Below, piece by piece: positions 1,874 through 54,441 of a DNA stretch of 64,000 bases (the first letter of the stretch is position 1; the number at the start of each line of letters is the position of its first letter). The stretch is from an uncultured bacterium (GTDB lineage Bacteria; Verrucomicrobiota; Kiritimatiellia; RFP12; UBA1067). Position numbers and translations under genes: made by a program. The stretch lies in NCBI GenBank assembly GCA_902780865.1, contig CACZHC010000011.1:2898-66897 (forward strand). The letters are read 5' to 3'. The notes beneath the pieces are model-generated. The model was not told the origin of the DNA. It saw only the letters and a program-made list of their open reading frames with translations, and searched no databases.

Positions 1874-1907
1874 AGTTCCACTCCTTGGTTTTCCGAATGA
1901 CATGGCA

Positions 1908-3680: not shown

Positions 3681-3695
3681 GGTTCCTCCGTCATG

Positions 3696-7679: not shown

Positions 7680-7682
7680 GCG

Positions 7683-9551: not shown

Positions 9552-9619
9552 CTTACCCCTTTCCCCCTTTCGGAGTTGTTTGACAGAAGGCATAACCCCC
9601 AGTCTGTTTTACCTTGAAT

Positions 9620-9648
9620 AAAATACCACATAGCACGTTGAAAGTCAA
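9620..9648 (-). promoter_or_regulatory. sigma70-like promoter for the LamG/GH operon
   Basis: On the minus strand: TTGACT (9648-9643), a 17-nt spacer, then TATTTT (9625-9620). Confidence 0.45.
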
Positions 9649-9702
9649 TGGGCGCATCACCCAGGAACGCCTCGCCGAAAATATGTCTGCGCTTCGCTTT
9701 CA

Positions 9703-11807: not shown

Positions 11808-11827
11808 AATAGTTTAAAGTTGAAAGT

Positions 11828-13564: not shown

Positions 13565-13676
13565 GTGCACCCTCACGCGGACATTTTACAAAACGCACCC
13601 GTCCGCGGCAACAAATAAACGCGAAAAAGAATATAAACAAATGCGAAACGCGGCTCATGCGCCGCGGATATATTTA

Positions 13677-13685
13677 TGGTATAAT
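13677..13685 (+). promoter_or_regulatory. extended -10 (TGGTATAAT) 6 nt upstream of the regulator ATG (leaderless-type)
   Basis: TGGTATAAT lies at 13677-13685 and the ATG at 13692. Confidence 0.5.
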
Positions 13686-13691
13686 TCCCGC

Positions 13692-16022: not shown

Positions 16023-19000
16023 TCCGCCGCGCCGATGCCGACGACAAAAAGCTGCGACTTGGACGTAGCGGCCTGAAGCTCGCCGAGCGCATCTGCGACA
16101 TCTGTGAGGGTGGCATTTAGAGTGAACGTCTCGGCGTCGTCAAGATTGTCCTTGCAGAGAAGGCCGAATGTCGAGCCGACGTTCGCGCCGATTTCCGCAG
16201 CACGGAATCCGACCGCGACCATGCCGCCCTCATACGCAATCGCTGTGAACGCGATGAACTTCCCGCCCTGTCCGTCGTCCAGTCCCTTAATGCCGCCGTT
16301 CGTGCCCGGGATGTCCCATTCGTCCGCAGGACGCGGACCGTATTCGCCGTACTCGTAGCATCCGATCGCCGGCTTCAGGTAGGAGAAGTACTTGCCGTCG
16401 AGGTCTTTTTCAAGACCGGCGTAGTCCGTGCCCGCCTCGATCGCAGGCGAAGTCGCGGCGAGATGGTAGTCGCCGTTCGCGGCATTGACAAAGAGCGGCG
16501 TTCCGCCGAAGAGGCAGGTCGTTGTCTTGGCCCCGACTGCGGAGGCGACTGTTGCGTCCTTGTACGCGACATCCGCATCGCCGGCCGTCGCGGCAGCTTC
16601 CGCCGTGTTGCCGGAGACGATGCAGTTCACGAGCGTCGTGTCGCCCTGGGCGATGTAGATTCCGCCGCCAAGCCCCGAGCCGACGACGCCATTGTTCGCA
16701 ACCGTCGTGTTGCGTATTACGGTCGTGAAGCTGTCGCTCGCGGCCACGCCCGTGACGGCGATGCCGCCGCCGTGGCTCGTGCGATCAGACGCGCCGGCCG
16801 TGTTGCCGTACACGAGGCAGGAGTCGATCTCGACGCTAAGCCCTGACCTTCCGCGGATGCCTATGCCGCCGCCAACTCCGTTGAGGAAGTCCGTTCCAGC
16901 GGAATTGCCCGCGACAATCGTGTGGTCGATCTTCACGCTGCCAGCGCCGCTCGCAAAGATGCCGCCGCCGCCATAGCTGCGCTTCGCATAGTTGTTCGTG
17001 ACGCAGCACCAGGAGACCGTGCCGTCGTCGATGTACACTCCGCCACCGGACTTGTCGTTGCCGTCGACCTTGCCTCCCGTGATGGCGACATGGCTGACGA
17101 CGCTTCCGTCCGCTATGTACGCCACGCGGTTGTCGCTTCCGGAGTTCGTTTTCGCGAAGCGAATCGTCGTGTTCGTCCAACCCTGGCCGACAAGCGTGAC
17201 GCCTCCAGTCACATTGAGCTGCGCGTCGATGTCGAAAAGACCGTTGCCAAGCGTGACGGTTCCCTGCGTCGGAACTGCGGCGTCGATTGCTTCCTGTATC
17301 GTCTGGCGCGTCTCGGCAGCCGTCTCGCCCGGCTGAATCCCCTCGCCCGGCTGCGGCGGAGTAATTACCTTGGGGATCGTAACGTCCTTCGTCTGGGTTG
17401 CGAACGGCGCGCCAGGGAATACAGCCGTGTAGCGCCCCGTGCCGGTCGCTTCGGTTGTCGCGGCCTGAACGACAGCGTAGGTCGCCGTGACTGTTTCGTT
17501 CGTCACATGCGCGGAATCGACGGTGCACGTCGCGCTTCCGGTGCACGTCGCGTTGTCGGCGGACCAGACGTACGACGCATCGCCCCAAGTATGGACGTGC
17601 GTTTCGGGACCGGGCTCAACAGGCTCGGCCCCGGTCGTAAAATTTCCGCTTTTCACCGCCCCCATCACGGTCTCGGCATTGTTGGAGATCGAAAGCGAAT
17701 AATAGTAAGTCGTCTCTGCCGTCAGGTTGGAAATGGCATAGTTGAACGAAGCCGTCGCGTCCTCGGCGATCTTCGTTGCCACGCCGAGAGTATTTGCACT
17801 CGCGCCGAGCGCGAGATAGACATCGCACGCGGTCGCGCCGGAGCCAAGCGAAGAGATCGTGCCGGAGATCGTCGCGTTCGTGACCGCCGGCGTAACGGTG
17901 ACCGTGCCGAGGACAGGCGACGTCTGAACGGGCTGAGCGCTGGATGAGGCCGTGCGGATGTTGTAGTCGTGGAGCTGCACGACGGGGTCCTCGTGAGGAT
18001 TGGGATAGGTGCCGCTCCACCCGCCGAGACGGACCTCGCGAAGCTTGTTGCTGTCCGTGTCGATAACGAAGATGCTGAAGTGGTAGGCGGCTTCCGTTCC
18101 GAGTTCGTGGCTCTTCGGCTTGCTCGGACAGTTCACGGCGTACGCGCTCGCGACGGATATTGCTGAAGCCCAGACCGCATTGCCAGGATTTGCGTCCTGA
18201 TCGGCCTTTGACGCGATTTCCTTCTCGTTCGTGAAATGGAAGTGCGCGGCGACGAGCCCGAAGAATCCCATGCCCTTGTGCGTGCCGAGGTTCCAGGGCT
18301 CATCGTGGCTCCCAGGGTTCGTGTAGCCGTTTATGTACCCGCACTGAAGGTCGGCGGCGGCGCCGCGTCCCGAGGAACCGCTAACCTTTTCCTCCGCACC
18401 GTGCGCGACCATGCCCATGACGGTGTTCTCCGGTGTGAGCGCTGGGTCGATGAGATTGCCGGATGCGTCGTAGAACTGCGCCGCGTCGTAGGCGCGGTAT
18501 TCGGACTTGCCGCCCGTCGCGCTGTCATAGAGGCTCACGCAGGCGATGCGCACGTTGGGGCCGCCGGACGCAAGAAGGCGACGGAAGTCGAGGTGGTAGG
18601 AGTTGCCGGTGAAATGTCCGGTTGTGCTGCCGAGCTTCGCGTTCGGAAGATCGCGATGGTAGGTGATGTCCACTCCCTGCAAATGCGCAGCGGCGGCAGA
18701 CGTGTTGAAGTTCGTCTGGACGTACGCCCACGCCTCGTCCGACATGTGCATATTCGCGCCGTTGAGCGAATAGTTGCGCTCGTGGTTGCCATCGATCGTG
18801 AAGAGCGGAACGCTCGCGGGGAGGTGCTGGTCAAACATCGCCTTCACGTTCCAGATTTCGTTGGTATATTCGGCTTCCGTGAGGCCGCGGTCCTGTGCGC
18901 CGCCGTTGTAGATCGGCGCAGTCGACAGGTCGCCGCCGTTGATGACGGCATCTAGCCCGGCGTCGACCGCCACGGACCCGAGAAGCCGGATCGACTGCTC

Positions 19001-19270
19001 CGCCTCCGTGAGGCAGCTGGCCGAACCGTACCAGTAGGTCGTGACCGGGTTAGTCGCCGCGTCGTCGCCTGCAACGCGCTTGCACTTGTGGACGTCGGAG
19101 ATCATGGCAAACGAGATGTACTTGCGCTTGCCGGTCGCAGGATCGATCGGGTTCACCTGTTCGACTATCGTCATGATGTCCGACTTGAGTCCGGCCTCAA
19201 GCGTCGCGACATCGTCTCCGAAGGCCAGAAGCCCCGAAGTCAGCAGTACGGCAGAAACGAGTTTTTTCAT
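16019..19270 (-). CDS. large secreted metallophosphoesterase fused to Pmp-type (GGGI...N) beta-helix repeats
   Basis: The track ORF starts at 19276. The second ATG (19270, MKKLVSAVLL) is 6 nt after AAGGAG. Calcineurin-like motifs are present (ISDVHK, GGDLS, IDGNHE). The C-terminal half has repeated GGGIFASG/GGGIGIRG/GGGIAVTG/GGGIYIAQ ... GN(S/T)A units. Confidence 0.65.
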   Translation of the reverse strand: MKKLVSAVLLTSGLLAFGDDVATLEAGLKSDIMTIVEQVNPIDPATGKRKYISFAMISDVHKCKRVAGDDAATNPVTTYWYGSASCLTEAEQSIRLLGSVAVDAGLDAVINGGDLSTAPIYNGGAQDRGLTEAEYTNEIWNVKAMFDQHLPASVPLFTIDGNHERNYSLNGANMHMSDEAWAYVQTNFNTSAAAAHLQGVDITYHRDLPNAKLGSTTGHFTGNSYHLDFRRLLASGGPNVRIACVSLYDSATGGKSEYRAYDAAQFYDASGNLIDPALTPENTVMGMVAHGAEEKVSGSSGRGAAADLQCGYINGYTNPGSHDEPWNLGTHKGMGFFGLVAAHFHFTNEKEIASKADQDANPGNAVWASAISVASAYAVNCPSKPKSHELGTEAAYHFSIFVIDTDSNKLREVRLGGWSGTYPNPHEDPVVQLHDYNIRTASSSAQPVQTSPVLGTVTVTPAVTNATISGTISSLGSGATACDVYLALGASANTLGVATKIAEDATASFNYAISNLTAETTYYYSLSISNNAETVMGAVKSGNFTTGAEPVEPGPETHVHTWGDASYVWSADNATCTGSATCTVDSAHVTNETVTATYAVVQAATTEATGTGRYTAVFPGAPFATQTKDVTIPKVITPPQPGEGIQPGETAAETRQTIQEAIDAAVPTQGTVTLGNGLFDIDAQLNVTGGVTLVGQGWTNTTIRFAKTNSGSDNRVAYIADGSVVSHVAITGGKVDGNDKSGGGVYIDDGTVSWCCVTNNYAKRSYGGGGIFASGAGSVKIDHTIVAGNSAGTDFLNGVGGGIGIRGRSGLSVEIDSCLVYGNTAGASDRTSHGGGIAVTGVAASDSFTTVIRNTTVANNGVVGSGLGGGIYIAQGDTTLVNCIVSGNTAEAAATAGDADVAYKDATVASAVGAKTTTCLFGGTPLFVNAANGDYHLAATSPAIEAGTDYAGLEKDLDGKYFSYLKPAIGCYEYGEYGPRPADEWDIPGTNGGIKGLDDGQGGKFIAFTAIAYEGGMVAVGFRAAEIGANVGSTFGLLCKDNLDDAETFTLNATLTDVADALGELQAATSKSQLFVVGIGAAE

Positions 19271-19300: not shown

Positions 19301-19367
19301 AGTATAGCAGAAACGCAGATGTCGAACAATTATTCAGAGGTATACCCCCGCGTATACAAAGGTATAC
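19301..19367 (-). promoter_or_regulatory. promoter (TTGTTC-17-TATACT) with an upstream array of three GTATAC palindromes
   Basis: On the minus strand the -10 TGCTATACT is at 19309-19301 and the -35 TTGTTC at 19329-19324. GTATAC occurs at 19340-19345, 19352-19357 and 19362-19367. In my hand alignment, 37 of 44 positions are identical to 20533-20576. Confidence 0.6.
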
Positions 19368-20462
19368 TTACCGAACGAAAATCACAGCGCCGGACTTGCC
19401 GCCGATTTCCTCCACGTCGCCAGCCGTCAGGAAAGTAGAGCTCGCGACCGTCGCGTACTCCGCGGCAATCCAGTCCGCCGACGCGACAGCATTGAGAAGC
19501 CGGCATTCGTCGAACGAACCATCTGCACAATTTGAACCGCCGCCAGATTTGCTGCCAATGGAAAATGATTTTTCATTGTCAGTAGCCGCAGTAATGCTGT
19601 CTGAGCGAACAGAGAAATTGCCATTGGTATAAGCCGTAATCGTCGTCCCATCGTATACGAACGCCAAATGGACCCAATTATTATGTGTATCAGGAGTAAT
19701 TGATCCAGTGCATAAGTTTTTGTCTTCAGCAGCGCCACGCGCCTTGAACTGACCAAAACTGGACAGCTCTATTTCCCAACCGTCAGAATCCTTATAGCCA
19801 ACCTTACGCGAGAAAACACGCGGGCTGCTCCCATATCCAGTAAGGCGCACCCATCCCGAAACAGAGAATGTGTTGCCGACACTGAACGAATCGTAGCTTG
19901 CAATCGAGAGATAACTGGCCGAACTACCTGTCCCTGTCCTTCGGGCATGTCCGACTGGAGCATCGCTGCCACTATATCGATTGCTTTTTGTCGTGTCTGT
20001 ACCCGCCGGCATGGCCGTAAGTCCGTGGCCTGTCGCGTCGGCGACCGGGCCACTTGTCTCGTCCATGTGCCAGACACCGACGTAGTTCGCACCCGTCCAG
20101 GTGGCGGCAGGGTTGTTGATCGTATCGTCCGAACCGCAGAAGCACATCGTAAACGTCGTCGTTTTCGTTACCGACGGAACGAGGACCCAGACGAGCGAGG
20201 TACCAGAGATATCCCAAGTGTCGACTTCATGCGGAACGACATTGCCTCCAGAGTCCTTGAAAACCAAATTGGTAGTCGCGCCGAAATCAGCGTAGTCAAA
20301 GCCCTCAATGGCAGTGGAGAGCTTCACAAGGACGGGGAAATTTGCAATCGGTCCAGAACCTTGATAGCCAGAGGTCGTAAAAGTGATCGACTTCGTAAAA
20401 CCGCCAAATGCGGACACGACGCCAGCTACAGACAGCAACGAGAATAAAAAGAACTTTGCCAT
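19368..20462 (-). CDS. secreted DUF2341 + LamG lectin-like protein with C-terminal ...GGKSGAVIFVR tail
   Basis: The track ORF starts at 20480. I prefer ATG at 20462 (MAKFFLFSLLSVAGVVSAFG), 7 nt after GGAG. ANFPVLVKLS...LVFKDSGGNVVPHEVDTWDISGTSLVWVLVP matches the DUF2341 pattern. A LamG-like C-terminal half follows. Confidence 0.65.
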   Translation of the reverse strand: MAKFFLFSLLSVAGVVSAFGGFTKSITFTTSGYQGSGPIANFPVLVKLSTAIEGFDYADFGATTNLVFKDSGGNVVPHEVDTWDISGTSLVWVLVPSVTKTTTFTMCFCGSDDTINNPAATWTGANYVGVWHMDETSGPVADATGHGLTAMPAGTDTTKSNRYSGSDAPVGHARRTGTGSSASYLSIASYDSFSVGNTFSVSGWVRLTGYGSSPRVFSRKVGYKDSDGWEIELSSFGQFKARGAAEDKNLCTGSITPDTHNNWVHLAFVYDGTTITAYTNGNFSVRSDSITAATDNEKSFSIGSKSGGGSNCADGSFDECRLLNAVASADWIAAEYATVASSTFLTAGDVEEIGGKSGAVIFVR

Positions 20463-20509
20463 TGTGGTTCTCCTTTTCATTAATCTTGTTTGTGAGATAC
20501 GGCTGCACT

Positions 20510-20576
20510 ATTATAGAAAATGACGCCGCCTTGAACAATTATACAGCGGTATACAGCCGAGTATACGAATGTATAC
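20510..20576 (-). promoter_or_regulatory. promoter (TTGTTC-17-TATAAT) with GTATAC array, in the divergent region shared with the sensor kinase gene
   Basis: On the minus strand the -10 TATAAT is at 20515-20510 and the -35 TTGTTC at 20538-20533. TTATAC is at 20539-20544. GTATAC occurs at 20549-20554, 20561-20566 and 20571-20576, with 10/12/10 bp phasing. Confidence 0.6.
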
Positions 20577-20616
20577 CGAAGAATCGCAAGTATCGCATTG
20601 CGTAAGATACATTAAC

Positions 20617-20627
20617 TGTGGTATACT
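20617..20627 (+). promoter_or_regulatory. extended -10 (TGTGGTATACT) 9 nt upstream of the kinase ATG
   Basis: TGTGGTATACT lies at 20617-20627 and the ATG at 20637. There is no SD in between. Confidence 0.45.
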
Positions 20628-20636
20628 TTTTATCAA

Positions 20637-22754
20637 ATGCTTGTCTTCTCCATTTCCTGTGCGTTCCTGCTTGGAATCGCCGCCCCGGTGACGCCGTCCG
20701 GTTCGATGCTGCACAGCATCGCCGAGTTAAACGACTTCTCCGACGATCCAAGCCACCGCCATGCGCCGTTCTGCATCACTGGCACAGTTCAGGCGGTCAG
20801 CGCATCCCCCGACAACTATCTTGTCCTGAGCGACACAAGCGGCTGGGTTGAAATCTTCAATGCCTCATCATACCATCCCGCTCCTGGCGAGGAGATTGCA
20901 CTGACCGGTCAAGCACACATGTCTGCGCACCATGAGATACACATCGCCGCACAGAGCATAACGCATGTTGGAACGGGGTCCGTATCGCAGCCGACAGAGT
21001 TGTCCATACGGGACATCAGCGACGAAAAGCACCATCTGCACACAGTCATCACCGAAGGCACGGTTATCGACACGTTCCCAGACGAAATAGACTCCCACAA
21101 CCAGTTTCTCATTCTAAAGGACGAAGAAGACATCCTGCCTGTAGCGCTGCGCGTGAATCCCGGCGCCAATCCTGACCTCGAGTCCCTGCGCGACGCAAGG
21201 GTGCGGATCACCGGCCGTTTCCTGCGCACCGTCAGCGGCAGCCGCAAGTTCTCCGGCCCTTTCATCTACGTCGACGACCGTTCGTGCATCACAGTCGTCG
21301 CACCTGCCCTTGAAGACCCCTTCGCCGCGCCGCCGCTCGAAAAGGCCCTCTACAGGACTCCACGGGAAATCGCAAAGCGCGATAAGCGGACAGTCTCCGG
21401 CGAAGTCCTCGCCGTCTGGGGAGGAAACCAGCTTATGGTGCGGGCATCTGACGGACGCATCGTCAATGTCTCTCTCGCCCATGGACAAGCCGCCCCCAAC
21501 CCTGGCGAGACCGTAACCGCCTCCGGCTATCCAGAGACAGACCTCTTCCGCGTCAACCTATCCCGCGCGATGGTGCGTGTGGAGCCGCACGCCATCGCGC
21601 CACAGCAGGAATCCGCAATCACGGACGTCAAGTCAGTTTTCGACGGCAGCGGCGGGATGAACGCCATCGACCCCGCCAGTCACGGACGCCTGATGCGAAT
21701 CCAGGGCATTGTCCAAAGCGCCCCTTCGCCAAACGGCCCAGGTCGGTTGCTGCTCGCGTGCGGTTCTTTCAAGTTGATGGTCGACCTCGGCACGCATCCC
21801 GATGCCGCCGCGGACATCGCGCTCGGCACCAAGATAGAAGTCACCGGACGCTGTCTCCTCGAAATCGACAAATGGACCCCAGACGACATCTTCCCGCGGA
21901 TCAGAAATCTCGTCGTCGTCATTCGCACACCCGAGGACCTTCGGATAATCGCCCGCCCTCCATGGTGGACGCCGCTCAGGCTGCTCATCGTGATTTCCGT
22001 CCTCGTCGCCGCGCTGATCGGCGTATACATCTGGAACCGCATACTGCAAAAACTTGTCAACCAGCGCGGTCGCGAACTCTACCGCGAGCAGGTCGCGCAT
22101 GCAATAGCGGAGTTCAGGACTGACGAACGCACGCGACTCGCCGTCGAGCTGCACGACTCGCTCTCGCAGTCGCTCGCCGGCGTCGCCTGCCATGTCGCCG
22201 CAAGCGCAAAGACAATCGACAAAAATCCAACCGTCGCAAAGCGCTGCATCGAGACGGCGGACAAGATGCTCAACTCCTGCCGCACGGAACTGCGCCAATG
22301 CCTCTTCGACCTCAGGAGCGACACGCTGGAAGAGACGAACTTCTCCACGGCCATCAGCAGGACCCTCGACCAGCTCGACGGCAATGCCGCGATCAAGGTG
22401 CGCTTCAACGTCCCGCGCAGACGCCTCAAGGACACGACGGCACACGCCATTCTCGCCATTGTGCGGGAACTGACGGGCAATGCGATACGCCACGGCGCGG
22501 CGACTGAAGTCCTGGTCGCCGGCAGCATTGAGTCCGGGAGAATTCTCTTCTCCGTACGAGACAACGGAAGCGGCTTCGATCCCGAGAGCTGCGTCGGCCC
22601 TCTCCAGGGGCACTTCGGCATAGAGGGAATCAGAAACCGCCTCGAGAAGCTGAACGGAACCCTTTCCATCGATTCAACGCCAGGCGACGGAACAAGGGCC
22701 GTCGTCGTCATACCCCTTCCACCATCCCAAAATACGGAAGCACACACACCATGA
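20637..22754 (+). CDS. sensor histidine kinase (HisKA_3/NarX-LiaS type) with ~415-aa extracytoplasmic repeat domain
   Basis: 705-aa ORF. It has an N-terminal hydrophobic segment, a TM at WWTPLRLLIVISVLVAALIGVYIW, the H-box ELHDSLSQSLAG, and an HATPase region (RELTGNAIRHG, DNGSGFD, GHFGIEGIRNRL). Confidence 0.8.
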   Translation: MLVFSISCAFLLGIAAPVTPSGSMLHSIAELNDFSDDPSHRHAPFCITGTVQAVSASPDNYLVLSDTSGWVEIFNASSYHPAPGEEIALTGQAHMSAHHEIHIAAQSITHVGTGSVSQPTELSIRDISDEKHHLHTVITEGTVIDTFPDEIDSHNQFLILKDEEDILPVALRVNPGANPDLESLRDARVRITGRFLRTVSGSRKFSGPFIYVDDRSCITVVAPALEDPFAAPPLEKALYRTPREIAKRDKRTVSGEVLAVWGGNQLMVRASDGRIVNVSLAHGQAAPNPGETVTASGYPETDLFRVNLSRAMVRVEPHAIAPQQESAITDVKSVFDGSGGMNAIDPASHGRLMRIQGIVQSAPSPNGPGRLLLACGSFKLMVDLGTHPDAAADIALGTKIEVTGRCLLEIDKWTPDDIFPRIRNLVVVIRTPEDLRIIARPPWWTPLRLLIVISVLVAALIGVYIWNRILQKLVNQRGRELYREQVAHAIAEFRTDERTRLAVELHDSLSQSLAGVACHVAASAKTIDKNPTVAKRCIETADKMLNSCRTELRQCLFDLRSDTLEETNFSTAISRTLDQLDGNAAIKVRFNVPRRRLKDTTAHAILAIVRELTGNAIRHGAATEVLVAGSIESGRILFSVRDNGSGFDPESCVGPLQGHFGIEGIRNRLEKLNGTLSIDSTPGDGTRAVVVIPLPPSQNTEAHTP

Positions 22755-23377
22755 AAAAAGCGCCAATCAGAATCATGCTCGCCGACGACCACATGCTCAT
22801 GCGCATGGGACTCTCGACGCTTATCGACTGCGAAGACGACATGAAGATCGTAGGGGAAGCCAAGAACGGCCGCCAGGCAGTGGAGCTGGCACATGCGCTG
22901 AAACCCGACATCATCATCATGGACCTGATGATGCCGGAGCTAAGCGGCGCCGAGGCTACAAAGCTCATACACGACGCCTATCCTGAAATCAAGATAATGG
23001 TCCTGACATCCTTCGGTACTTCCAAGGAAATGTCCGATGCCATCATGAACGGCGCAGACGGCGCATTGATGAAAGACACTGCCGCAGACGAGCTTATCAA
23101 AACCATCCGCGCCATAGTCGCCGGAGAGCGCATAATCCCCGACCGCCTGATGAGGCAGGCGGCCGAAGACAACATAACCCCGAAGCTCTCCGACCGCCAC
23201 CTCGAGATACTGTCCTCAATCGCACAGGGCCAGTCAAACTCCGACATCGCCAAGCAATACGGTCTGTCGGAAATCTCGATCAAGAAGCAGGTCTCGAAGA
23301 TCTTCGCGCGCCTCGGCGTCTCAAACCGCTCCGAAGCCGTCGCTCTCGCCCTCAGGAAGCAGATGCTCAAGTCCTGA
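22751..23377 (+). CDS. NarL/FixJ (LuxR-HTH) family response regulator
   Basis: 208-aa ORF whose ATG overlaps the kinase stop (ATGA). The receiver domain is IRIMLADDHMLMR...DIIIMDLMMP. The LuxR HTH is LSDRHLEILSSIAQGQSNSDIAKQYGLSEISIKKQVSKIFARLGVSNRSEA. Confidence 0.85.
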   Translation: MKKAPIRIMLADDHMLMRMGLSTLIDCEDDMKIVGEAKNGRQAVELAHALKPDIIIMDLMMPELSGAEATKLIHDAYPEIKIMVLTSFGTSKEMSDAIMNGADGALMKDTAADELIKTIRAIVAGERIIPDRLMRQAAEDNITPKLSDRHLEILSSIAQGQSNSDIAKQYGLSEISIKKQVSKIFARLGVSNRSEAVALALRKQMLKS

Positions 23378-23379
23378 GT

Positions 23380-25995
23380 CTACCGCTCGATCTTGAACAG
23401 CCAAGTGTTGGGGCCATCCGTTTCAAGCATGAACTCCTTGGCCTTGTACCTCTCGTCCGAGAAAAGGTCGCGGACCGACCCTGTCATCATCGGCATGCGA
23501 ATCGTGTGCCTGCCGACCGCACCAGTGTGGAACATGAAAATGTCCCCATGCCGGCGAAAGTAATTTCCAGGCGCCGTGTACATCCACGCGCCGGCCTCCT
23601 TCAGCAGCGCCGCATACTCCTTCGGGGAACGCGGCGGTTCGGGAACGATGATGCTCTTCGACTTCCCGGCTGACAGTTTCTTCGCGAACGCCTTGCCTCC
23701 GCAGACCGGCTTCGCCTCGGGATCGCGGCATGCGATCTTCGGCTTGCGGGCGGCACCGGAGGCAGTAACGCCAGTCAGCGCAGACATCGCCGCATCGTCG
23801 AAACCGGAGTCCGTCACGCCACCGGCCGGGCCAATCCACACCGCCGACACGCCAGGCATGCGCGTCAACTTTATCAGCGTCGCGCGCTCTTCCTTGGTAA
23901 GATAAAACGCGTTGAGGAAGACGACCTTCTTGTACTTGCGAGGATTGGCGACGTAGTCCTCGAGCGTAAGCATGTCGAATGCAGCGCCGCTGCGATAGAG
24001 GTCAAGGAAGGACTTCTGGTAGAGAAGACGCGTGAACGAGGTGCAATCGCCACCGTCTTGGCGCAATCTCTCGCGCGGGCTCATCACGACGGCCACGTCG
24101 TTGCCGGACAGCATGGCCGGCGTTCCCGCCTTCTTCATCATCGTCTTTGCGTCCTCCAGCGCCTTGAACACCGCCGGATTGTCAAAGGCATGTGCACGCT
24201 GGCCGACGCCTTCCATCGGATCGTATAGCTGTATCCCGGCGCAGTCGAAGAACTGGTTCAGCCAGTTGCGGCGCATGTTCATCTCCGTCTCCCTCTCCGA
24301 CCGCGTGGCGTACTCCTGTCCGCTGTTCTTGATCCAGCGGTAGATGTGGTGGAATCGGCTGTCGTCCTCGACGAGAAGAATCTTGTCGAAGCGGCGGAAC
24401 GCCGACGGAATCGTCCTCGGCACATAGCTGGCCCCAGAGAGGCGGGCGCATGCGGCGTGGAACGGCGGACTCGAGAGGAAGTCGATGTCAGGGCTCGAGA
24501 GCACCTTGTCGAGCAGGACGTTCGTCCCTTCCGGGGCGTCAGTCGTGAAAAGATAGCCGTAGAACGCGCCGACCAGCCGCCCCGGGAAGAGGCGCCGCGT
24601 CTCGCCCGCCATTGCCAGCAGGAGATCGGCCGTCACGTTCGCGTGGCAGTCGTAGTAGTCAAGCACAAGCCTGTCCTTGACCGGATCAAGCAGATCGCAA
24701 CCCTCGTGGCGGCGCATTGCCGCCGTTGGGATCTTCGCGTCGGATACGCCGCGCTTCGCCTGCATGTACGCGCGGAACTTCTCCTGCATCCTGAGGCCGG
24801 TGTCGGGCGCCTCGAACATTCCGTAGCAGTGCCACTCGCCGTAGACACCGCACATAGGACGGACGCCTATCACGCGCTTGGACCACGGCTGCTTGTTGAC
24901 GTACTCGGCGAGCTCTCGGATCATCTGGAGCGAGAGTTCGCGGAACTTGCCGCTTGCCATCGAAGGCCTTACTGGGCGTCCTAGGCGGTCGTCGTCGCTC
25001 TTCGGGTCTGCCGGGCCCGTGGCGTATCCGACCTGCTCGGTTGGGTTGCGCATCGCCCACTCCCGCATTCCGAAGCGAAGCCCCAGCATCAGATAGGCGC
25101 CGGGATTGAGGCTAAGCACGCGCCGCGCCGCATTGTCCACTTCGGTGAATATGCATGGTTCGCCATCGCCATTGTAGAAATTCTCCATGCCAAGATCCAA
25201 CTCGACAATCTTGAATCCCGCCTCTCCAAACCTGACAATCGCGCTGTCACGATAGGCATCCCCGGGATCGCAACGATTGATGACAGCATCGTGCAGCGAT
25301 CCGTTGATCTCGATCTTGGGCTGAATTCCGCGGTAGACTACTTTCGCGACAGGATTCGGCTCGTCGGAGAGCCCTTCTGGCAGAACCCTGGTAGACGCCT
25401 CGATTTCCATCAGGCTGTCGTACTCCTCTGGCGTTGTGAACCTGCGCCTAAGGTCGTTATTCAGCGACCAGGGCTTGCCAAGGACATCTCCGCATATCTT
25501 TACTCTTGGCCACGCAGAATCGTCGAAGCCCGGACGCTCCCATCCGGCTTTTGGCTCCTTCACCGTGCCCCTGACCGCGGGACCGCTGTGTATGTAGCAC
25601 CTGGTACCGCTGGCGTCCTCGCACGAAACCATGTAGATGGCGGCGGAAGCGTAGAAGTCGTTGACCAGGCATATGGCTATCGTGTTTGTGCCCGCATGGA
25701 GATGACCCGCCACATCTCCCGCGCGCTCCACCTGCGTACCGTTCACGTACACCGTCCCGTCATCGTCGAGATAGAAGTCAAACTTCGCCTTCGCCGGCTT
25801 TACAGGCAGTATGAAGGTGTGTCTGTAGTACGAGACGATGCCGTTGGTAACCGATCCGTCCGCCGCCCACACAAGCTTCGACTTGCTGACGGTACCCTCA
25901 GGAATCTCCAGCACCCCAGGCGCAAAAGCGTACCCGAACACGCTCGGCATAGCCAGCGCGGCTAGAAGCATCAAAAATAACCTTGTCACTCTCAT
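23380..25995 (-). CDS. secreted GH42-like putative glycoside hydrolase with N-terminal beta-sandwich (paralog 1)
   Basis: 871-aa ORF with a signal peptide. It is homologous along most of its length to 26120..29092 (e.g. VIGVRPMCGVYGEWHCYGMFEAPDTGLRMQEKF vs VIGVRPCWGIYTEWHMYGMDQGPDTGLRMTEAF; VLSSPDIDFLSSP vs VLSSPDVDFMSNP). Confidence 0.55.
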   Translation of the reverse strand: MRVTRLFLMLLAALAMPSVFGYAFAPGVLEIPEGTVSKSKLVWAADGSVTNGIVSYYRHTFILPVKPAKAKFDFYLDDDGTVYVNGTQVERAGDVAGHLHAGTNTIAICLVNDFYASAAIYMVSCEDASGTRCYIHSGPAVRGTVKEPKAGWERPGFDDSAWPRVKICGDVLGKPWSLNNDLRRRFTTPEEYDSLMEIEASTRVLPEGLSDEPNPVAKVVYRGIQPKIEINGSLHDAVINRCDPGDAYRDSAIVRFGEAGFKIVELDLGMENFYNGDGEPCIFTEVDNAARRVLSLNPGAYLMLGLRFGMREWAMRNPTEQVGYATGPADPKSDDDRLGRPVRPSMASGKFRELSLQMIRELAEYVNKQPWSKRVIGVRPMCGVYGEWHCYGMFEAPDTGLRMQEKFRAYMQAKRGVSDAKIPTAAMRRHEGCDLLDPVKDRLVLDYYDCHANVTADLLLAMAGETRRLFPGRLVGAFYGYLFTTDAPEGTNVLLDKVLSSPDIDFLSSPPFHAACARLSGASYVPRTIPSAFRRFDKILLVEDDSRFHHIYRWIKNSGQEYATRSERETEMNMRRNWLNQFFDCAGIQLYDPMEGVGQRAHAFDNPAVFKALEDAKTMMKKAGTPAMLSGNDVAVVMSPRERLRQDGGDCTSFTRLLYQKSFLDLYRSGAAFDMLTLEDYVANPRKYKKVVFLNAFYLTKEERATLIKLTRMPGVSAVWIGPAGGVTDSGFDDAAMSALTGVTASGAARKPKIACRDPEAKPVCGGKAFAKKLSAGKSKSIIVPEPPRSPKEYAALLKEAGAWMYTAPGNYFRRHGDIFMFHTGAVGRHTIRMPMMTGSVRDLFSDERYKAKEFMLETDGPNTWLFKIER

Positions 25996-26037
25996 CTCAA
26001 TCCAGATTCTCTCCTGTCCCGAGAAAAATTGGGCGGT

Positions 26038-26082
26038 ATTTTACCATTTGGTCGTTTGCAAGGCAACTATACCAATGTATAC
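26038..26082 (-). promoter_or_regulatory. promoter (TTGCCT-17-TAAAAT) abutted by CTATAC/GTATAC sites
   Basis: On the minus strand the -10 is at 26043-26038 and the -35 at 26066-26061. CTATAC is at 26067-26072 and GTATAC at 26077-26082, 10 bp apart. Confidence 0.5.
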
Positions 26083-26119
26083 ACCTCAAGCAGCACTGAG
26101 AGTCCTTTCTGAGCGAAAA

Positions 26120-29092
26120 TCACTGTGGATCGCGCGGAGTAGATCGGAGAACCATGAATCCCCTGTCTGCGTTTACTGGAATGGACGCGAGAATCTTCGT
26201 TCCGTCCGCACTGACGGTCAACCCGGAATTCTCGAACGAGACCGGCTTCCAGGTCGAGACCTTGGCCGTAAGGTCGGAATTAGTGCAGACGGAAATGCCA
26301 AGGACGGCCTTCCCATTCTCAACTTCAAGAGTTGCAGCGCCAGCGGCCTCAACCTCGGTCCGCGAGACAAGCAACATGCCCTCGGGAACGGAAGCGCTAA
26401 AGCCACTCTTTAACTCGCCCAGCGAAAGACTGACCGGCACCGTGTCGGGGAGCCCGGCAAAGACGTTCTCCCCAAGCGTCACGCCATTGCCTATCTGAAT
26501 ACCCGTCACGGACGACTTGTCCCACGGAACGTCAGCAGCGCCCGAAAAATCGCGCGTCGACCCCGTGCCCGTGAAACGCAGCGTGCCGTCCGGCTCCAGC
26601 GAGGCGGTAACGGAATCGCCGACCGACCACGATTCGGCCGCGACCGCCTTGAACACCCAGGTGTTCGGCCCGTCGGAGTGGAGCGTCAGCTCGGAAGAAT
26701 CGTAGACCTGGCCGGTGTAGAGTTCGCGGACCTTCGTCATGCCGGCCGGAAGGTTGATCCGGATCGTCGCGTTCGACGCCGTGTGGAACATCATTACGTC
26801 GCCGTGGCGGCGGATGCAGTGCCCGATCGGCGCGAGCGGCGTCGCCCCCATGCCGGTAAGAAGCTCACGCCACACATTCGGGTTCGTGACGTGGTACGGC
26901 ATGTTGTTGATGTCGCGCACCTTTGCCTGCGACGACGGGAGGTTGAATGGGCAGTGGAAGAGCCAGACCGATTTGAAGTCCGAGGCGGAAACGCGTTGCT
27001 GCAACGCGGTCTTCATCTCGCCCTCGGGCGCAAACACGTTGAGGAAGACGGCCTTGCGGTAGCGCGATGCGGGCTTGGCGAGGAAGTCGTCGAGCGACAT
27101 CATGTCGAACGGCACGCCAGAGGCGTAGAGGCCCGGCAGGGAGTGCGTATAGATGAGGGCGTGGGTGAAGGTTTCCTTGGTGGAGCACCGCAGGCGTTCG
27201 CGCCAGTCGACTACGACCGCGACCTCGTTGCCGGAATCCGCAGGACGTTCGCCAATCTCCCCGAGAACTCGCTGCGTGTCGGCGATAGCCTGCAGAACGG
27301 GCGGCGTGTCCATCGAGAAATTTCGCTTGTCGATGTCATGCTCGGGATCAAGCATCTGGAGACCGCAACCATCGAAATAGCGGTTGAGCCAGTTGCGGCG
27401 CGTCGTCATCTCCTCCTCTTGCTCACTTCTCGTGCAGATGTACTGTAGCTGGACGTACTTGGAGACGTGGTAGTGACGCATGTCGTCCTCAAGCATGACG
27501 AGCTTGCCATAGCGGTGGAAGGTCGCAGGAATCGTCCGGTGGTGATACGCGCCGCCCGCAAGACGGCACTCCTCCGTATAGTCGGCCGGATTGGACATGA
27601 AATCGACGTCCGGCGACGAGAGCACCCGGTCGAGCATCACGTTCGCCCCCTCCGGCGGATGCGTCGTCATGACGTAGCCGTAGTACATGCCGACGAGGCG
27701 GCCGGGGAGCTCGGTCTTGATGGTGTGAGCGACGTTCGTCATGAGATCGGCGATTACGGTGGCCTGGCACTCGTAGAAGTCGATTACCTTCTGCTCGGTC
27801 GCGTTGTTCGCGCGATTCAGGAAGAAGCGGTCGTTGTCGTTTCTGCGATCTGCCATCGTCGGCGGATTCTCGTTCGCGTACTTTCCGTTCTTCCACTTGT
27901 GGAACGCCTCGGTCATCCGAAGGCCCGTGTCGGGGCCCTGGTCCATGCCGTACATGTGCCACTCGGTGTAGATGCCCCAGCAGGGACGCACGCCTATGAC
28001 GCGGTCGCCCCAAGACTGCGCCTTGATGTACGCGGCGAGCTTCGTGAGAAGGCTCTTCGCCTCGGCGCAATACGCGGCCGAGGCCGGCGAGGGCCGCGCG
28101 ACGCGGTCCTTGCGCTCGTCGAGGTCTCCTGAGGTCTGCACGTCGCCGTTCGCATAGCCGATGCGTTCGTTCGGATGCGCAGCAAGCCACTTGGGGAGCT
28201 CCATGCGGATCAACACGAGAATGCGTGCGTCGGGAGCGGCCTGGAACATCGAGGCGGCCTTGTTGCCGAGTGCGGAAAAGTCATAGGAGCCGGCCGACTT
28301 CTCGTATTCCGACGGACGCAGGTTGAGCTGGTTGATGGTGATTCCGAGATTGGCCATCTTCGCGACCGCCTGCTTGCAGTAGGAGCTGTCGACTCCGCTC
28401 TGGTTGAAGACAGGCTCGAAGAGCGCTCCGTCGATCGAGATCTTCGGCACGCCGTTTGTATAGACGATCTTCGCGTTGGGTGTCCCAGTCGTATCCCCGG
28501 AACCTCCCGACCCTCCCGATCCTCCCGCCTCCGCCGCCGCCTTTGCGGCGCGCTCCTCCTCAGTCGTGCAGTTGTTCACATAGGGAGTGATGTCTCCTGC
28601 TATGTTCGTCCATGCGTCGCCGATTTCCGTCGCAGCGCGCCAGGAAGAATCGTCATAGTCGGGCGCCTGCCAGTTGCCGGACGCCGTGCCGTCAGTTACC
28701 TTGAAAGTCTGCGAGTCGCTGTTGACGATGACGTGTCCTCCGTCCGTAAGCTCGATGTCGCCGCGGAGAATGATTCCCGCCTTGCTCACGTGGTTCGTCG
28801 CGAGCATCGCGAGGACGTTGCGCCCTTCACGCAGGCCGTTGCCGTCGACGATTTCGTTGCGCGAGTAGGACGTACCGTTCATCCAATAGTACGCGCCGTC
28901 GTCGACGTACACCTTGATTGACGCCCGACTAACAGGCCCCGGCACGTTGAATTCCGCGCGGAACAAATACGTCTCGTGCGAATGTGCCTCGGACGCGCCC
29001 CAGATCCAACGCGAGGCGGAATAGTATTCCTGTGTTGCGCCAACTGCGGAAAGCGCCAGAACGGATGCACAAACAACAACTGCCATCTTCAT
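26120..29092 (-). CDS. secreted GH42-like putative glycoside hydrolase with N-terminal beta-sandwich and extra C-terminal domains (paralog 2)
   Basis: 990-aa ORF with a signal peptide. The start follows GAGGA-N8-ATG. It has a GGSGGSGGSG linker after the N-terminal domain and ~200 extra C-terminal residues relative to paralog 1. Confidence 0.55.
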   Translation of the reverse strand: MKMAVVVCASVLALSAVGATQEYYSASRWIWGASEAHSHETYLFRAEFNVPGPVSRASIKVYVDDGAYYWMNGTSYSRNEIVDGNGLREGRNVLAMLATNHVSKAGIILRGDIELTDGGHVIVNSDSQTFKVTDGTASGNWQAPDYDDSSWRAATEIGDAWTNIAGDITPYVNNCTTEEERAAKAAAEAGGSGGSGGSGDTTGTPNAKIVYTNGVPKISIDGALFEPVFNQSGVDSSYCKQAVAKMANLGITINQLNLRPSEYEKSAGSYDFSALGNKAASMFQAAPDARILVLIRMELPKWLAAHPNERIGYANGDVQTSGDLDERKDRVARPSPASAAYCAEAKSLLTKLAAYIKAQSWGDRVIGVRPCWGIYTEWHMYGMDQGPDTGLRMTEAFHKWKNGKYANENPPTMADRRNDNDRFFLNRANNATEQKVIDFYECQATVIADLMTNVAHTIKTELPGRLVGMYYGYVMTTHPPEGANVMLDRVLSSPDVDFMSNPADYTEECRLAGGAYHHRTIPATFHRYGKLVMLEDDMRHYHVSKYVQLQYICTRSEQEEEMTTRRNWLNRYFDGCGLQMLDPEHDIDKRNFSMDTPPVLQAIADTQRVLGEIGERPADSGNEVAVVVDWRERLRCSTKETFTHALIYTHSLPGLYASGVPFDMMSLDDFLAKPASRYRKAVFLNVFAPEGEMKTALQQRVSASDFKSVWLFHCPFNLPSSQAKVRDINNMPYHVTNPNVWRELLTGMGATPLAPIGHCIRRHGDVMMFHTASNATIRINLPAGMTKVRELYTGQVYDSSELTLHSDGPNTWVFKAVAAESWSVGDSVTASLEPDGTLRFTGTGSTRDFSGAADVPWDKSSVTGIQIGNGVTLGENVFAGLPDTVPVSLSLGELKSGFSASVPEGMLLVSRTEVEAAGAATLEVENGKAVLGISVCTNSDLTAKVSTWKPVSFENSGLTVSADGTKILASIPVNADRGFMVLRSTPRDPQ

Positions 29093-29128
29093 TTTTTCGT
29101 TCCTCGTTGATGAATGTTTTCGAGGAAG

Positions 29129-29209
29129 ATTATAGCAGACGGTCAGTTTACAGACAATTATACGAAAGAGACGAAATCCATATACGAAAGTATTAACCAG
29201 TCACTATAC
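29129..29209 (-). promoter_or_regulatory. promoter (TTGTCT-17-TATAAT) with degenerate (T/A/C)TATAC sites upstream
   Basis: On the minus strand the -10 TGCTATAAT is at 29137-29129 and the -35 at 29157-29152. TTATAC is at 29158-29163, ATATAC at 29180-29185 and CTATAC at 29204-29209. Confidence 0.45.
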
Positions 29210-29229: not shown

Positions 29230-30855
29230 TCACTTGCGGACAAAGTGCGGAAGACGGCTGATCGGCGTTGCGACTTCGACGGTCTTTGGTCCGACTACTT
29301 CAGTGCCGTCGTCCGCAACCCATGTTCCTGTCGGCACGAAAACCTTGCGCGTCTTCGCTCCCTTGACGGTCTGCGGCGCGACGAGAAGCTTGGAGCCAAG
29401 CATGAACTGGTCGGTTATCCGCTCTGCGCCAAGGCCTGGGAACTCGTATTCCATCGCCCTGAGCATCGGCTCGCCCGACTTGGCCGAGGCCTTCGCCGTC
29501 TCGATGATGTAGTCGACATGCTTCATGCGCGTATGCGCCGCAGCACGGACCGCGTCGAGATATTCGCCCTTCAGAAGACGCCAAGGCGCCGCCGAGAACT
29601 GCATCATCGGCGCAAGGGCGTGCACCTGGGCGCTGCGAACGAAGAGCTCGGGATCAAAAGGCGTCGGCGCGTCAGGCATAAACGCCATCCAGCTGCCGCC
29701 GCCAATCATGTCGGGGCAGACGAACGGATGGCCGAGAAGCCCGCACGCAATCATGTCTGGCACGAGTTGCTGCACCGCAGGCCAGTCGTGCCCCTTGTCG
29801 CAAAGGCGCTGCACGAGCGGCTGGCCGCCCATCTTGAAACACGCGCGATACTCGTTCAGCGGAAACTCGAGGCCGATCTTCGCGTACGCCTCGCACAGTT
29901 CCGAAGGCGACGCCTTGACGTGCGTCACATACGGCTTGATATACTCGTCCATATCTCCCGCGTCCAGCTTGAATCCGTCGACGCCGTAGTCGGCCTGGAG
30001 ACGCTTGAGCTCGCGAGCGAACCACTTCGCACCGAGCGGATGGGTGAAATCGACAAACGCGCTCGCTCCGTTCCACCAGTGGACGGTTTTCGCGGTTTTG
30101 CGCCCGTACACGTTTTTCTCGCCAGACATGATAAGCCCGCCCTTTTCGCATTTCCGCCCCGCGTCAAGCGAGCCAAAGACCATCTCTCGATAGCCAGGTG
30201 AGTCCATTGACACAAACGGGCACACCCAGAGCATCACTTTGTATCCGGCGGCATGGAGCTCGTCGCACATCGCCTTCGGGTCTGAGAATCGGCGGCGGTC
30301 AAAGTCCCAGACGCCGTAGCCATGCTGCCAGGTGTCGTCGACCATTATCACGCCGCCTACGGGAAATCCGTTCGCCGCGATTCCCTTCGCGTAGTCGAGA
30401 ATGCCCTGCTGGTTCTGGAAGTAGGTAAGCTCAACCCAGGTGTTCCACTGGGGCTTCGCAATGAGCGCGAGATCCGGGGTCTTTCCGCTCGCGGGGAAAT
30501 GCCTGCTCGCTGCGGCGAGAAAAGCCGAGCGAAGGTCCGATCCCTCTTCCCTAAGCTCGATCGGCGCATCGCCAGTAAACGTCATCACGCCGTCCGCAAA
30601 TGAGCAGGCAAACGCCTTTTCGCTCCACACTGAGCGCCCCTTCGTCGACAGCATGATGGGCGCGGCCTGGTTGCTGTAGTTGTCTTTCCTGATGTCAAAG
30701 GTAAAAGACGTGGCGTTGAGCCCAAGCGGCTCCTTCGTGCCAAACGTCGTGGCACCGCCCCACCAGCCCTCTCCGGGCAGCAGGGTCACCTTGAGTTCTT
30801 CTGCGCCCACGACCAGTGCCGCTGCCACCGTCATCGCCGTAACAAGACTTTTCAT
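29230..30855 (-). CDS. secreted GH31-family glycoside hydrolase
   Basis: 541-aa ORF with a signal peptide. ...[11 protein letters not shown]... and ...[12 protein letters not shown]... match the GH31 catalytic-region pattern (G-V-D-x-F-K-x-D). Confidence 0.6.
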
Positions 30856-30908: not shown

Positions 30909-30946
30909 ATGCGCCTCGCGCGGCATATATTCCACGCGAGGCGCAT
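30909..30946 (-). terminator. hairpin downstream of pnp (12-bp perfect stem, 14-nt loop)
   Basis: ATGCGCCTCGCG (30909-30920) pairs with CGCGAGGCGCAT (30935-30946). On the minus strand it is followed by TTTGTTGAAAT. Confidence 0.5.
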
Positions 30947-30999
30947 AGCTTGCATACGAACAGGACGAACTCAGTTCGCGGTCTGCTCGTCGAGTTCCT

Positions 31000-54374: not shown

Positions 54375-54441
54375 ATGATAGCCAAAAAACGCAGGGAGCG
54401 CAACAATTAATCAACCGACCTCAATTAATACCTCAATTATT
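54375..54441 (-). promoter_or_regulatory. promoter (TTGCGC-17-TATCAT) plus upstream TAATTG(A/T) repeats
   Basis: On the minus strand the -10 is at 54380-54375 and the -35 at 54403-54398. caattaat copies start at 54404, 54422 and 54434. The 23-mer cctcaattaatacctcaattatt lies at 54419-54441 and overlaps the GntR-type gene stop. Confidence 0.5.

Follow-up and report, generated by a model that had tools for sequence, protein, structure and literature searches.

The GTATAC arrays described here lie in a 64-kb stretch of DNA from an uncultured bacterium (contig CACZHC010000011.1; the whole stretch is called the window below), in promoters that flank an operon for a sensor histidine kinase and its response regulator, and we consider it likely that they are the operators of this two-component system. 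As far as sequence comparison can tell, they are real cis-regulatory operators that are conserved among related loci. The neighboring NarL-family regulator very probably binds them; most likely it activates transcription from a position directly against the −35 box and feeds back positively on its own operon. The window has a G+C content of 61%, and its kinase is 95% identical to the counterpart in the metagenome-assembled genome (MAG) JAZSOG01, with further relatives in Kiritimatiellia MAGs from rumen and goat gut; the DNA comes from a rumen- or gut-type member of the Kiritimatiellia.

The kinase gene (20637–22754, plus strand; 705 aa) encodes HisKA_3 and HATPase_c domains (Pfam, 1.6e-13 and 7.9e-12) and overlaps by 4 bp with the regulator gene (22751–23377, plus strand; 208 aa), whose product combines a receiver (REC) domain with a GerE domain (Response_reg, 8.3e-26; GerE, 1.1e-13). 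With this domain pair, and with a cognate HisKA_3 kinase in the same operon, the regulator belongs to the NarL/FixJ family. Its best PDB matches are VraR/LiaR (5hev, E = 7.5e-40), DesR, NarL, and DevR, and its top NCBIfam matches (MctR, NarL, and UvrY) each stay below the equivalog cut-off. The putative targets are all encoded on the minus strand. Operon A (14907–19270) consists of two translationally coupled genes with a 4-bp overlap, for a 1085-aa secreted protein (16019–19270; weak Metallophos match, and a C-terminal part resembling the beta-helix proteins of related loci) and for a Y_phosphatase3 protein (14907–16022). Gene B (19368–20462) encodes a secreted Laminin_G_3 (LamG) protein (Pfam; signal-peptide-like N-terminus MAKFFLFSLLSVAGVVSAFG), and genes C (23380–25995) and D (26120–29092) are paralogs for secreted GH42-like proteins (32% identity, E = 4e-140), that of gene C with an N-terminal CBM67-like domain. 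All four target proteins have a signal-peptide-like start.

The target promoters follow a common layout, which in gene orientation reads [hexamer-N4-hexamer]-N6-[hexamer-N4-GWATAA]-TTGnnn-17 nt-(TGn)TAnnnT. All promoter elements are predictions, and with the transcription start taken as 7 nt past the −10 hexamer, the 16-bp dyads would be centered at about −43.5 (proximal pair) and −65.5 (distal pair). On the minus strand, cassette A reads GTATAC-cttt-GTATAC-gcgggg-GTATAC-ctct-GAATAA-TTGTTC-17 nt-TATACT and cassette B reads GTATAC-attc-GTATAC-tcggct-GTATAC-cgct-GTATAA-TTGTTC-17 nt-TATAAT. In promoter B, the distal pair (GTATAC-attc-GTATAC, 20561–20576) is kept in seven related loci (L001, L002, L003, L004, L026, L058, L062; related loci and contigs carry L numbers throughout) and has a predicted center of −65.5 from both the gene B start and the kinase start. 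The proximal pair (GTATAC-cgct-GTATAA, 20539–20554; predicted center −43.5) abuts the −35 box of the core promoter (20510–20538), which comprises TTGTTC at 20538–20533, a 17-nt spacer, and TATAAT at 20515–20510, with a predicted start at about 20503. In promoter A, the distal pair (GTATAC-cttt-GTATAC, 19352–19367), which begins immediately past the stop codon of the LamG gene, is kept in L002, L004, L027, and L040; the proximal pair (GTATAC-ctct-GAATAA, 19330–19345) again abuts the −35 box, and the core (19301–19329) comprises TTGTTC at 19329–19324, a 17-nt spacer, and an extended −10, TGC-TATACT, with its hexamer at 19306–19301 and a predicted start at about 19294. Both −35 boxes match the consensus at 3 of 6 positions, which is why a generic promoter scan did not list promoter B; it did not list promoter A either. 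The proximal GTATAAT was also considered as the −10 of a second promoter and set aside, as no usable −35 or TGn stands in register and promoter A has GAATAAT at this place.

A sequence-only reading of the window had first pointed to these cassettes, and its description is largely borne out. The regions 19324–19367 and 20533–20576 match at 37 of 44 positions by our own count, the GTATAC sites at 19340, 19352, and 19362 and at 20549, 20561, and 20571 are exact, the start-to-start spacing of 10/12/10 bp agrees with the proposed 10–12 bp phasing, and the −35 (TTGTTC), 17-nt spacer, and −10 (TATACT/TATAAT) are as it gave them. The two genes that the cassettes lead were said to be non-homologous, and a comparison of the LamG protein with the 1085-aa protein indeed shows no homology. 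The hexamer had also been expected to be scarce in 64 kb: dinucleotide-preserving shuffles give 2.68 copies, compared with 13 in the window, a number reached in 0 of 100 shuffles. Two stretches of ~40 bp had been said to hold seven perfect copies; three fall in each array, and the copy at 20621 is not part of an array. Five others (19653, 22023, 44741, 45995, 47440) are in coding DNA, roughly the number expected by chance. Pairs of the form GTATAC-N4-GTATAC, with up to 2 mismatches, occur six times, five of them in the three intergenic promoters flanking the kinase–regulator operon (19330, 19352, 20539, 20561, 26067) and one inside a gene (8859). The motif scan that had been proposed as a check for restriction to promoters, run over the 64-kb window with a relaxed cassette, finds full cassettes only at promoters A, B, and C (19345, 20554, 26082).

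Promoter C carries a single pair, GTATAC-attg-GTATAG (26067–26082, minus strand), against the −35 of its core (26038–26066; TTGCCT, 17-nt spacer, TGG-TAAAAT; 9/12 matches with TG present in the generic scan; predicted start at about 26031), and L001 has GTATAC-cttg-GTATAC in the same place; the CTATAC/GTATAC sites read at 26067/26077 against the −35 of this GH42-like gene are thus confirmed. At promoter D, where TTATAC at 29158 and degenerate sites up to 29209 had been noted, both are found, and the degenerate array (29158–29209, minus strand) keeps the register: GTATAA (29163–29158) stands against the −35 box, its partner hexamer 10 bp away is missing, GTATAT (29185–29180) and TAATAC (29195–29190) follow 22 and 32 bp upstream, and an extra GTATAG lies at 29209–29204. 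The core of promoter D (29129–29157) reads TTGTCT, a 17-nt spacer, and TGC-TATAAT (10/12 matches, TG present in the generic scan), with a predicted start at about 29122. The gene for a GH31 protein at 29230–30855 was rejected as a direct target in the window, where it has no cassette upstream but only the PNPase terminator; its orthologs in L004, L005, L026, L031, and L068 do carry the cassette.

One might suppose that the arrays are not operators at all, and that GTATAC marks restriction-modification or methylation targets, that a promoter was recently duplicated, or that AT-rich promoters in a 61% G+C genome simply yield such hexamers. As a 6-bp palindrome, GTATAC resembles the sites that type II restriction-modification enzymes read, the promoters are AT-rich, and cassettes A and B are 84% identical. 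However, their seven differences are concentrated in the spacers, with six within the 14 spacer positions and one in a hexamer, and the six pairs seen in the window compare with 0.26 expected in dinucleotide-preserving shuffles. Such an origin is further contradicted by the related loci considered below, where orthologs retain the hexamers while the spacers drift and paralogs use other hexamers at the same offset; the offset to the −35/−10 elements is fixed to within 1 bp. We therefore regard it as highly improbable.

In orthologous loci whose kinases are 95, 85, 78, and 72% identical to that of the window, the hexamers, the TTG, and the −10 are retained and the spacers change, which constitutes a classical phylogenetic footprint. 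A GTATAC-type dyad persists at 61% kinase identity (L130) and at 52–45% (L005, L006, L068, L134, L135). A pattern scan of metagenomes returned many chance matches in low-G+C DNA, and only Kiritimatiellia-type contigs, recognized by high G+C and homologous genes, were used as evidence. Among the matches listed, the cassette precedes homologs of GH31 proteins (L025, L031, L050, L068), GH42-like proteins (L044, L048, L129), and beta-helix/LamG proteins (L107, L115, L122). Altogether, the cassettes found number 39 (at least 20 distinct) and have the form hexamer-N4-GTATAA-TTGnnn; in all of them the operator touches the TTG with a 0-bp gap, followed after 17–18 nt by a −10 element TAnnnT, mostly with TGn. 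The inner C6 and G11 of the dyad are invariant in 31/31 proximal and 13/13 distal pairs, and the central N4 spacer is rich in T, above all in distal pairs (TTTC) and in the paralogs described below (tttc, tttt, aaaa). Some cassette-bearing contigs have no two-component system within 10 kb. This is also true of L140, which was retrieved through its GH42-like protein rather than the motif, and which has ACATAC-tttc-GTATAA-TTGCCT-17-TAGAAT upstream of this gene.

The paralogs of the regulator also point to it as the candidate binder of the arrays. The kinase belongs to a family with 277 matches at E ≤ 1e-10, all of ~700 aa, and 96–40% identical among the 120 listed; its close matches are all Kiritimatiellia-type, and relatives at 27–29% identity occur in Planctomycetes MAGs. 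Several kinase–regulator pairs per contig are common, beside glycoside hydrolase, lipase, and beta-helix genes, and some stand in tandem (three within 10 kb in L130, at 456–10225; two in L131, at 10001–12708 and from 21208 onward). Tandem pairs beside carbohydrate-active enzyme genes indicate recent paralogous expansion. The promoters of these paralogs have the same layout with other half-sites, and 0–1 bp separates the operator from the TTG. L131 and L138 use the perfect inverted repeat CTGTAC-N4-GTACAG (two sites in L138), L136 uses the inverted repeat CTACAC-tttc-GTGTAG, L137 uses CTGCAC-tttt-GTGCAT, and L132 has two sites of TCGTCC-kttc-GGCTGA; the core common to the paralog operators is nTnnAC-N4-GTnnAn. 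As GTATAC is its own reverse complement, the orientation of the monomers cannot be read in the window, whereas CTGTAC-N4-GTACAG and CTACAC-N4-GTGTAG are unambiguous inverted repeats. These operator differences parallel differences in the recognition helices of the paralogous regulators. A helix S-[IV]-K-K-[QH] (SIKKQVSK) goes with GTATAC in the window, L001–L006, L130_1, L134, and L135; AVKQHIS (AVKQHISA) goes with CTGTAC in L138, AVKKLLA (AVKKLLAS) with CTACAC in L136, GVKKHFM (GVKKHFMA) with CTGCAC in L137, and TVKTHIA (TVKTHIAK) with TCGTCC in L132.

The same geometry emerges from an unbiased scan of 238 kb of kinase-retrieved loci, in which each of 127 sites resembling an extended −10 was scored for 6-4-6 inverted repeats, offset by offset upstream. 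Those in which 5 or more of the 6 positions pair peak 23–24 nt upstream of the −10 hexamer (15/127, against a background of typically 0–1 per offset), with echoes at 34, 45–46, and 57 nt. For L133, no convincing dyad was apparent by eye, and the CGGCCT-actg-AGGCCG found by the scan may be a hairpin and was not used.

These data also bear on which protein reads the arrays. Another factor could do so, either the AraC-type regulator encoded at 13302–14855 or an unlinked one, with the synteny of the two-component system being coincidental. AraC-family activators bind ~17-bp half-sites every 21 bp, the proximal one overlapping the −35, a period that resembles the 22-bp period of the pairs here, and the AraC-type gene adjoins operon A in L002 as well as in the window. 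However, this gene is not beside the arrays in L001, L003–L006, L058, L062, L068, L115, and L130–L138 (L026 has a fragment of it), and the paralog operators are perfect inverted repeats, not direct repeats; an AraC-type regulator is not expected to read inverted repeats. On these grounds it was rejected as the main binder. Any other factor would also have to account for operators whose sequence varies with the adjacent regulator paralog and that are phased with the kinase promoter, and we think it improbable that one is responsible. The adjacent response regulator had been put forward as the candidate binder from the start, and conservation, covariation among paralogs, NarL-family geometry, and the absence of the AraC-type gene from most loci all back this proposal.

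Autoregulation, which the sequence-only reading had suggested, is supported by the kinase promoter. An extended −10, TGnTATAMT, ends 6–13 nt upstream of the kinase start codon in every ortholog and paralog examined (window, L001–L006, L130–L138), and in these same loci there is no Shine–Dalgarno sequence and no recognizable −35 box before the kinase genes. In the window, this element (TGGTATACT, 20619–20627, plus strand) ends 9 nt before the ATG at 20637, with a predicted transcription start at about 20634; it includes the GTATAC at 20621, which was for this reason dismissed as a fifth regulator site. With a −10 so near the start codon and no Shine–Dalgarno sequence, the kinase operon mRNA is predicted to be leaderless, or near-leaderless, and probably is so throughout the family. 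Measured from the end of the operator that faces the kinase gene, the kinase −10 hexamer lies at discrete distances: 23–24 nt in the L005 group, L131a, L131b, L132, L134, and L138; 34–35 nt in L004, L136, and L137; 45 nt (23 + 22, from the distal pair) in the window and its close relatives; and 55 nt in L003, with L130 an outlier at 20 nt. Helical phasing of the operators with the kinase −10 thus holds for 11 of the 12 lineages (resultant length, 0.83; p = 5e-5 by Monte Carlo for periods of 10–11.5 bp). At 23–24 nt, a single palindromic dyad is equidistant from two divergent −10 elements, a bidirectional arrangement. The L005 lineage has two pairs, each of which would serve one promoter. The 16-mer at 20583–20598 (ATCGCAAGTATCGCAT), in the 22-bp register where a third dimer before the kinase −10 would lie, is not GTATAC-like. 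Between array B and the kinase −10, the stretch 20583–20612 (AGTATCGCATTGCG...GATAC, with a CGCAA-N8-TTGCG inverted repeat) is kept in L001, L002, L026, L058, and L062.

In the mechanism that we propose, the periplasmic sensor of the kinase would detect a signal, most likely a glycan, and the kinase would phosphorylate the REC-GerE regulator, which would then attach in head-to-head dimers to the 16-bp dyads GTATAC-N4-GTATAC/A. The proximal dyad, centered at about −43.5, would abut the TTG of the weak −35 box, and the second dyad, where present, would face the same side of the helix from 22 bp upstream, at about −65.5, probably filled cooperatively or by a tetramer. Bound regulator would recruit RNA polymerase, as NarL does at yeaR/ogt and BvgA at fha/ptx, and would induce a small regulon whose secreted products act on glycans (the LamG protein, the large beta-helix-type protein with the phosphatase, and the two GH42-like paralogs), into which sister species would also take GH31. 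Positive autoregulation would follow from the helical phasing between these operators and the divergent kinase promoter, whose transcript is probably leaderless.

Closely similar designs are known. BvgA binds in dimers whose monomers are arranged head to head, one for each turn of the helix; the dimer centers are 22 bp apart on one face of the DNA, and the proximal dimer abuts the −35 (PMC7250471). The window's lineage has this 22-bp dimer spacing as well as the proximal site against the −35, so that cassettes A and B resemble the Pfha and Pptx promoters of Bordetella pertussis, and in both systems the number of sites varies per promoter (one to two pairs here). The half-sites differ, being TTTCCTA heptads for BvgA and GTATAC in a 6-4-6 frame here, and BvgA combines one strong site with cryptic ones, whereas here all sites are near consensus, with at most two clear dimer sites. 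The BvgA spacing is 22 bp, while here it drifts to 23–24 bp in sister lineages, and hosts and targets differ too, with Kiritimatiellia and, as putative targets, glycan-active enzymes here. At yeaR, NarL activates from a 16-bp dyad at −43.5, and at ogt from one at −44.5 plus an upstream site, with the RNA polymerase alpha subunit's C-terminal domain (alpha-CTD) in the minor groove at the dyad center and no contact with sigma region 4 (sigma-4), a non-canonical class II mode (PMC10853779). The arrangement here is alike, given the inferred start: a 16-bp palindrome at about −43.5 just upstream of a weak −35, and a cognate kinase of HisKA_3 type (PMC10853779, PMC7419079). The A/T-rich dyad center where the alpha-CTD docks on NarL promoters resembles the T-rich N4 spacer here, which by analogy would suit such docking. 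Differences from NarL lie in the second site (−77.5 at ogt, −65.5 here), in the sensor domain of NarX, which is unrelated to that of the kinase here, and in the recognition sequence: the NarL heptamer TACYYMT in its 7-2-7 frame is not present in the arrays. The sites are read as 6-4-6 and therefore do not belong to a NarL ortholog but share only its mode. The analogy with class II-type activation, as originally drawn, thus fits the position abutting the −35, while the term is only loosely apt, since NarL itself lacks the sigma-4 contact (PMC10853779).

The cell-envelope stress regulators LiaR and VraR are the closest solved homologs of the regulator. LiaR recognizes the consensus T-N4-C-N4-G-N4-A, its Lys177 contacts the inner bases, and the activated tetramer covers ~42–44 bp (PMC4482077). 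The 16-bp frame and the inner C...G are the same as in nTnnAC-N4-GTnnAn, the Lys177 position is also a lysine in the regulator here (by alignment), and the four-hexamer array measures 38 bp plus flanks, which is the length covered by the tetramer. The outer T1/A16 of the LiaR consensus occur in some sites only, such as TTATAC-tcgt-GTATAA in L130. The secondary LiaR site lacks a consensus in sequence, in contrast to the two near-perfect pairs here, and LiaR senses membrane stress via LiaF and LiaS, while the system here has a large periplasmic sensor and secreted carbohydrate-active targets.

The same sites and the same binder could instead serve repression, with the regulator sitting against the −35 and blocking the alpha-CTD or sigma-4 until a signal relieves it. 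NarL-family regulators repress at some promoters, and most target promoters here combine a TTG −35 with an extended −10 (TGnTAnnnT), so that they could fire without an activator. Against this stands the placement of the operator, which in no case extends into the −35, the −10, or the start and keeps a gap of 0–1 bp to the −35 in at least 20 promoters and all paralogs; rigid spacing to the core promoter is what one typically sees with activators that have to contact RNA polymerase. Moreover, the same position (−43.5/−44.5) is an activating one for NarL and BvgA, and promoters A and B each have a −35 box that agrees with the consensus at only 3/6 positions. Repression is accordingly the less favored role and, in our judgment, unlikely.

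Several observations weigh against activation by the adjacent regulator through these arrays, or limit how far the evidence for it reaches. As most target promoters have a good extended −10, an activator is perhaps not strictly needed, which leaves repression open. Many cassettes were retrieved by a pattern that itself required the motif, and their conservation is partly ascertainment; for this reason they are unfit to measure conservation of the hexamers, for which the protein-retrieved ones are fit. The paralog operators were first found by eye, a bias that the kinase-retrieved scan removes in part. The correspondence between helix and operator is not one-to-one, as GTATAC is retained in L115 despite its KHT helix, and CTGTAC occurs with two different helices, in L131_1 and in L138. 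The 22-bp spacing between pairs is found only in the window's lineage (A and B, with D in register), while it is 23–24 bp in L048, L005, and L135. Finally, L130 (20 nt) and L135 fall off the phasing with the kinase promoter.

In a structural model of the kinase (pLDDT 81.8), an N-terminal membrane helix is followed by ~400 periplasmic residues, a second membrane helix, and a DesK-like catalytic core, and the cytoplasmic part superposes on DesK. The periplasmic region is modeled as four consecutive beta-barrels with a weak resemblance to tandem OB/HIN folds; neither Pfam nor NCBIfam gives a match for this sensor region (20700–21980, residues ~22–445). One kinase homolog has a faint match to the tRNA_anti-codon OB-fold. 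As the targets are glycan-active, a glycan fragment is the natural guess for the signal.

The designation of genes C and D as GH42-like paralogs stands at the level of the fold and fails at that of the sequence family. The AlphaFold model (pLDDT 92.3) shows the three-domain architecture of GH42 enzymes (TIM barrel, A4 middle domain, beta-sandwich), and the top Foldseek matches are the GH42 beta-galactosidases 3tts (E = 6e-21) and 1kwg (5e-19), with a TM-score of ~0.6 on the target; GH35 and GH164 folds score nearly as well. Neither protein has a Pfam match even at E = 1, so that they fall outside PF02449, which was found in only one distant homolog (P0209). Their N-terminal domain matches a region of a Streptomyces rhamnosidase, which we take to be a CBM67 rhamnose-binding module. 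The proteins may form an unclassified glycoside hydrolase family. Secreted hypothetical proteins of this GH42-like family have so far been seen only in Kiritimatiellia-type sequences.

BvgA and NarL already provide examples of a design with dimers abutting the −35. The novelty here lies in the motif and the phylum, in the type of sensor, and in an operator code that apparently extends across the family. A plausible, if still tentative, extension is that the system in the window belongs to a large undescribed two-component family, maybe largely confined to Kiritimatiellia, that forms a counterpart of the Bacteroides regulators of polysaccharide utilization loci (PULs), with a periplasmic sensor of four OB barrels, a leaderless, autoregulated operon, and a recognition helix by which each paralog specifies its own nTnnAC-N4-GTnnAn dyad against the −35. 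Like the hybrid two-component and other PUL regulators of Bacteroides, this is an expanded family of membrane sensors beside secreted glycan-degradation gene clusters, which it presumably switches on, and each paralog has its own DNA target. Unlike in the Bacteroides hybrid systems, kinase and regulator are separate proteins and the output domain is of GerE rather than AraC type; the Bacteroides sensors are Y_Y_Y beta-propellers or periplasmic binding proteins, in place of the OB-like barrels here, and no SusC/SusD pair is found here.

Kiritimatiellia, abundant and for the most part uncultured, degrade glycans in the rumen and gut, and their gene regulation is essentially uncharted in the searchable literature. 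Nothing relevant was found there on GTATAC as a regulator site or on two-component regulation in Kiritimatiellia, and one paper mentions these kinases, noting only their closeness to glycoside hydrolases (PMC10880615). If the family is as proposed, regulons and substrates of uncultured rumen Kiritimatiellia would become predictable from sequence alone. A defined operator in a fixed promoter geometry would allow the regulon of each sensor to be delimited in MAGs and would link hypothetical secreted proteins (GH42-like with a CBM67-like domain, LamG, beta-helix) into functional units, and cloned components would permit simple binding and reporter experiments. The system would also add a clean, high-consensus example of the BvgA/NarL design against the −35, together with a bidirectional variant in which one palindromic dyad lies 23–24 nt from two divergent −10 elements.

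Similar arrays were also encountered outside this family. Soil-metagenome contigs (L022, L024, L056, L065, L066, L088, L106, L112, L117) carry GATCAG-N4-GTATTA-N6-GTATAC-caac-GTATAA-TTGCGCC (L065, 7318–7410, minus strand), with the same 10/12/10 spacing as in the window and variants in L051, L079, and L090. There, the array sits between an operon for a PAS-GAF-HisKA kinase and a REC-GerE regulator and an operon for a REC-only protein and a sigma-54 activator, and these contigs present a second case, unrelated to the first, of a phased GTATAC-like array occurring together with a GerE regulator. Gut contigs of ~50–58% G+C (L010, 835–880; L032; L069; L084; L070, 1491–1535) have an identical GTATAC-TTTC-GTATAA-TTGT cassette with a good −10, ~180 nt upstream of two-partner-secretion genes of the ShlB/FhaC type, in short flanks without a regulator gene.

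Within the window, two further sugar-type regulators each stand beside another cluster of carbohydrate-active enzyme genes: the AraC-type protein considered above (plus strand), in which an AraC helix-turn-helix (HTH) domain is joined to a periplasmic-binding-protein domain, and a GntR HTH protein with a periplasmic-binding-protein domain (54437–55513, minus strand). The clusters near them include GH78, GH39-like, heparinase/alginate-lyase-like, and peptidase C10 genes, and a GH78 rhamnosidase is encoded at 1908–3680. Past the PNPase gene, a G+C-rich hairpin (GCGCCTCGCG...CGCGAGGCGC, 30910–30960, minus strand) looks like its terminator.

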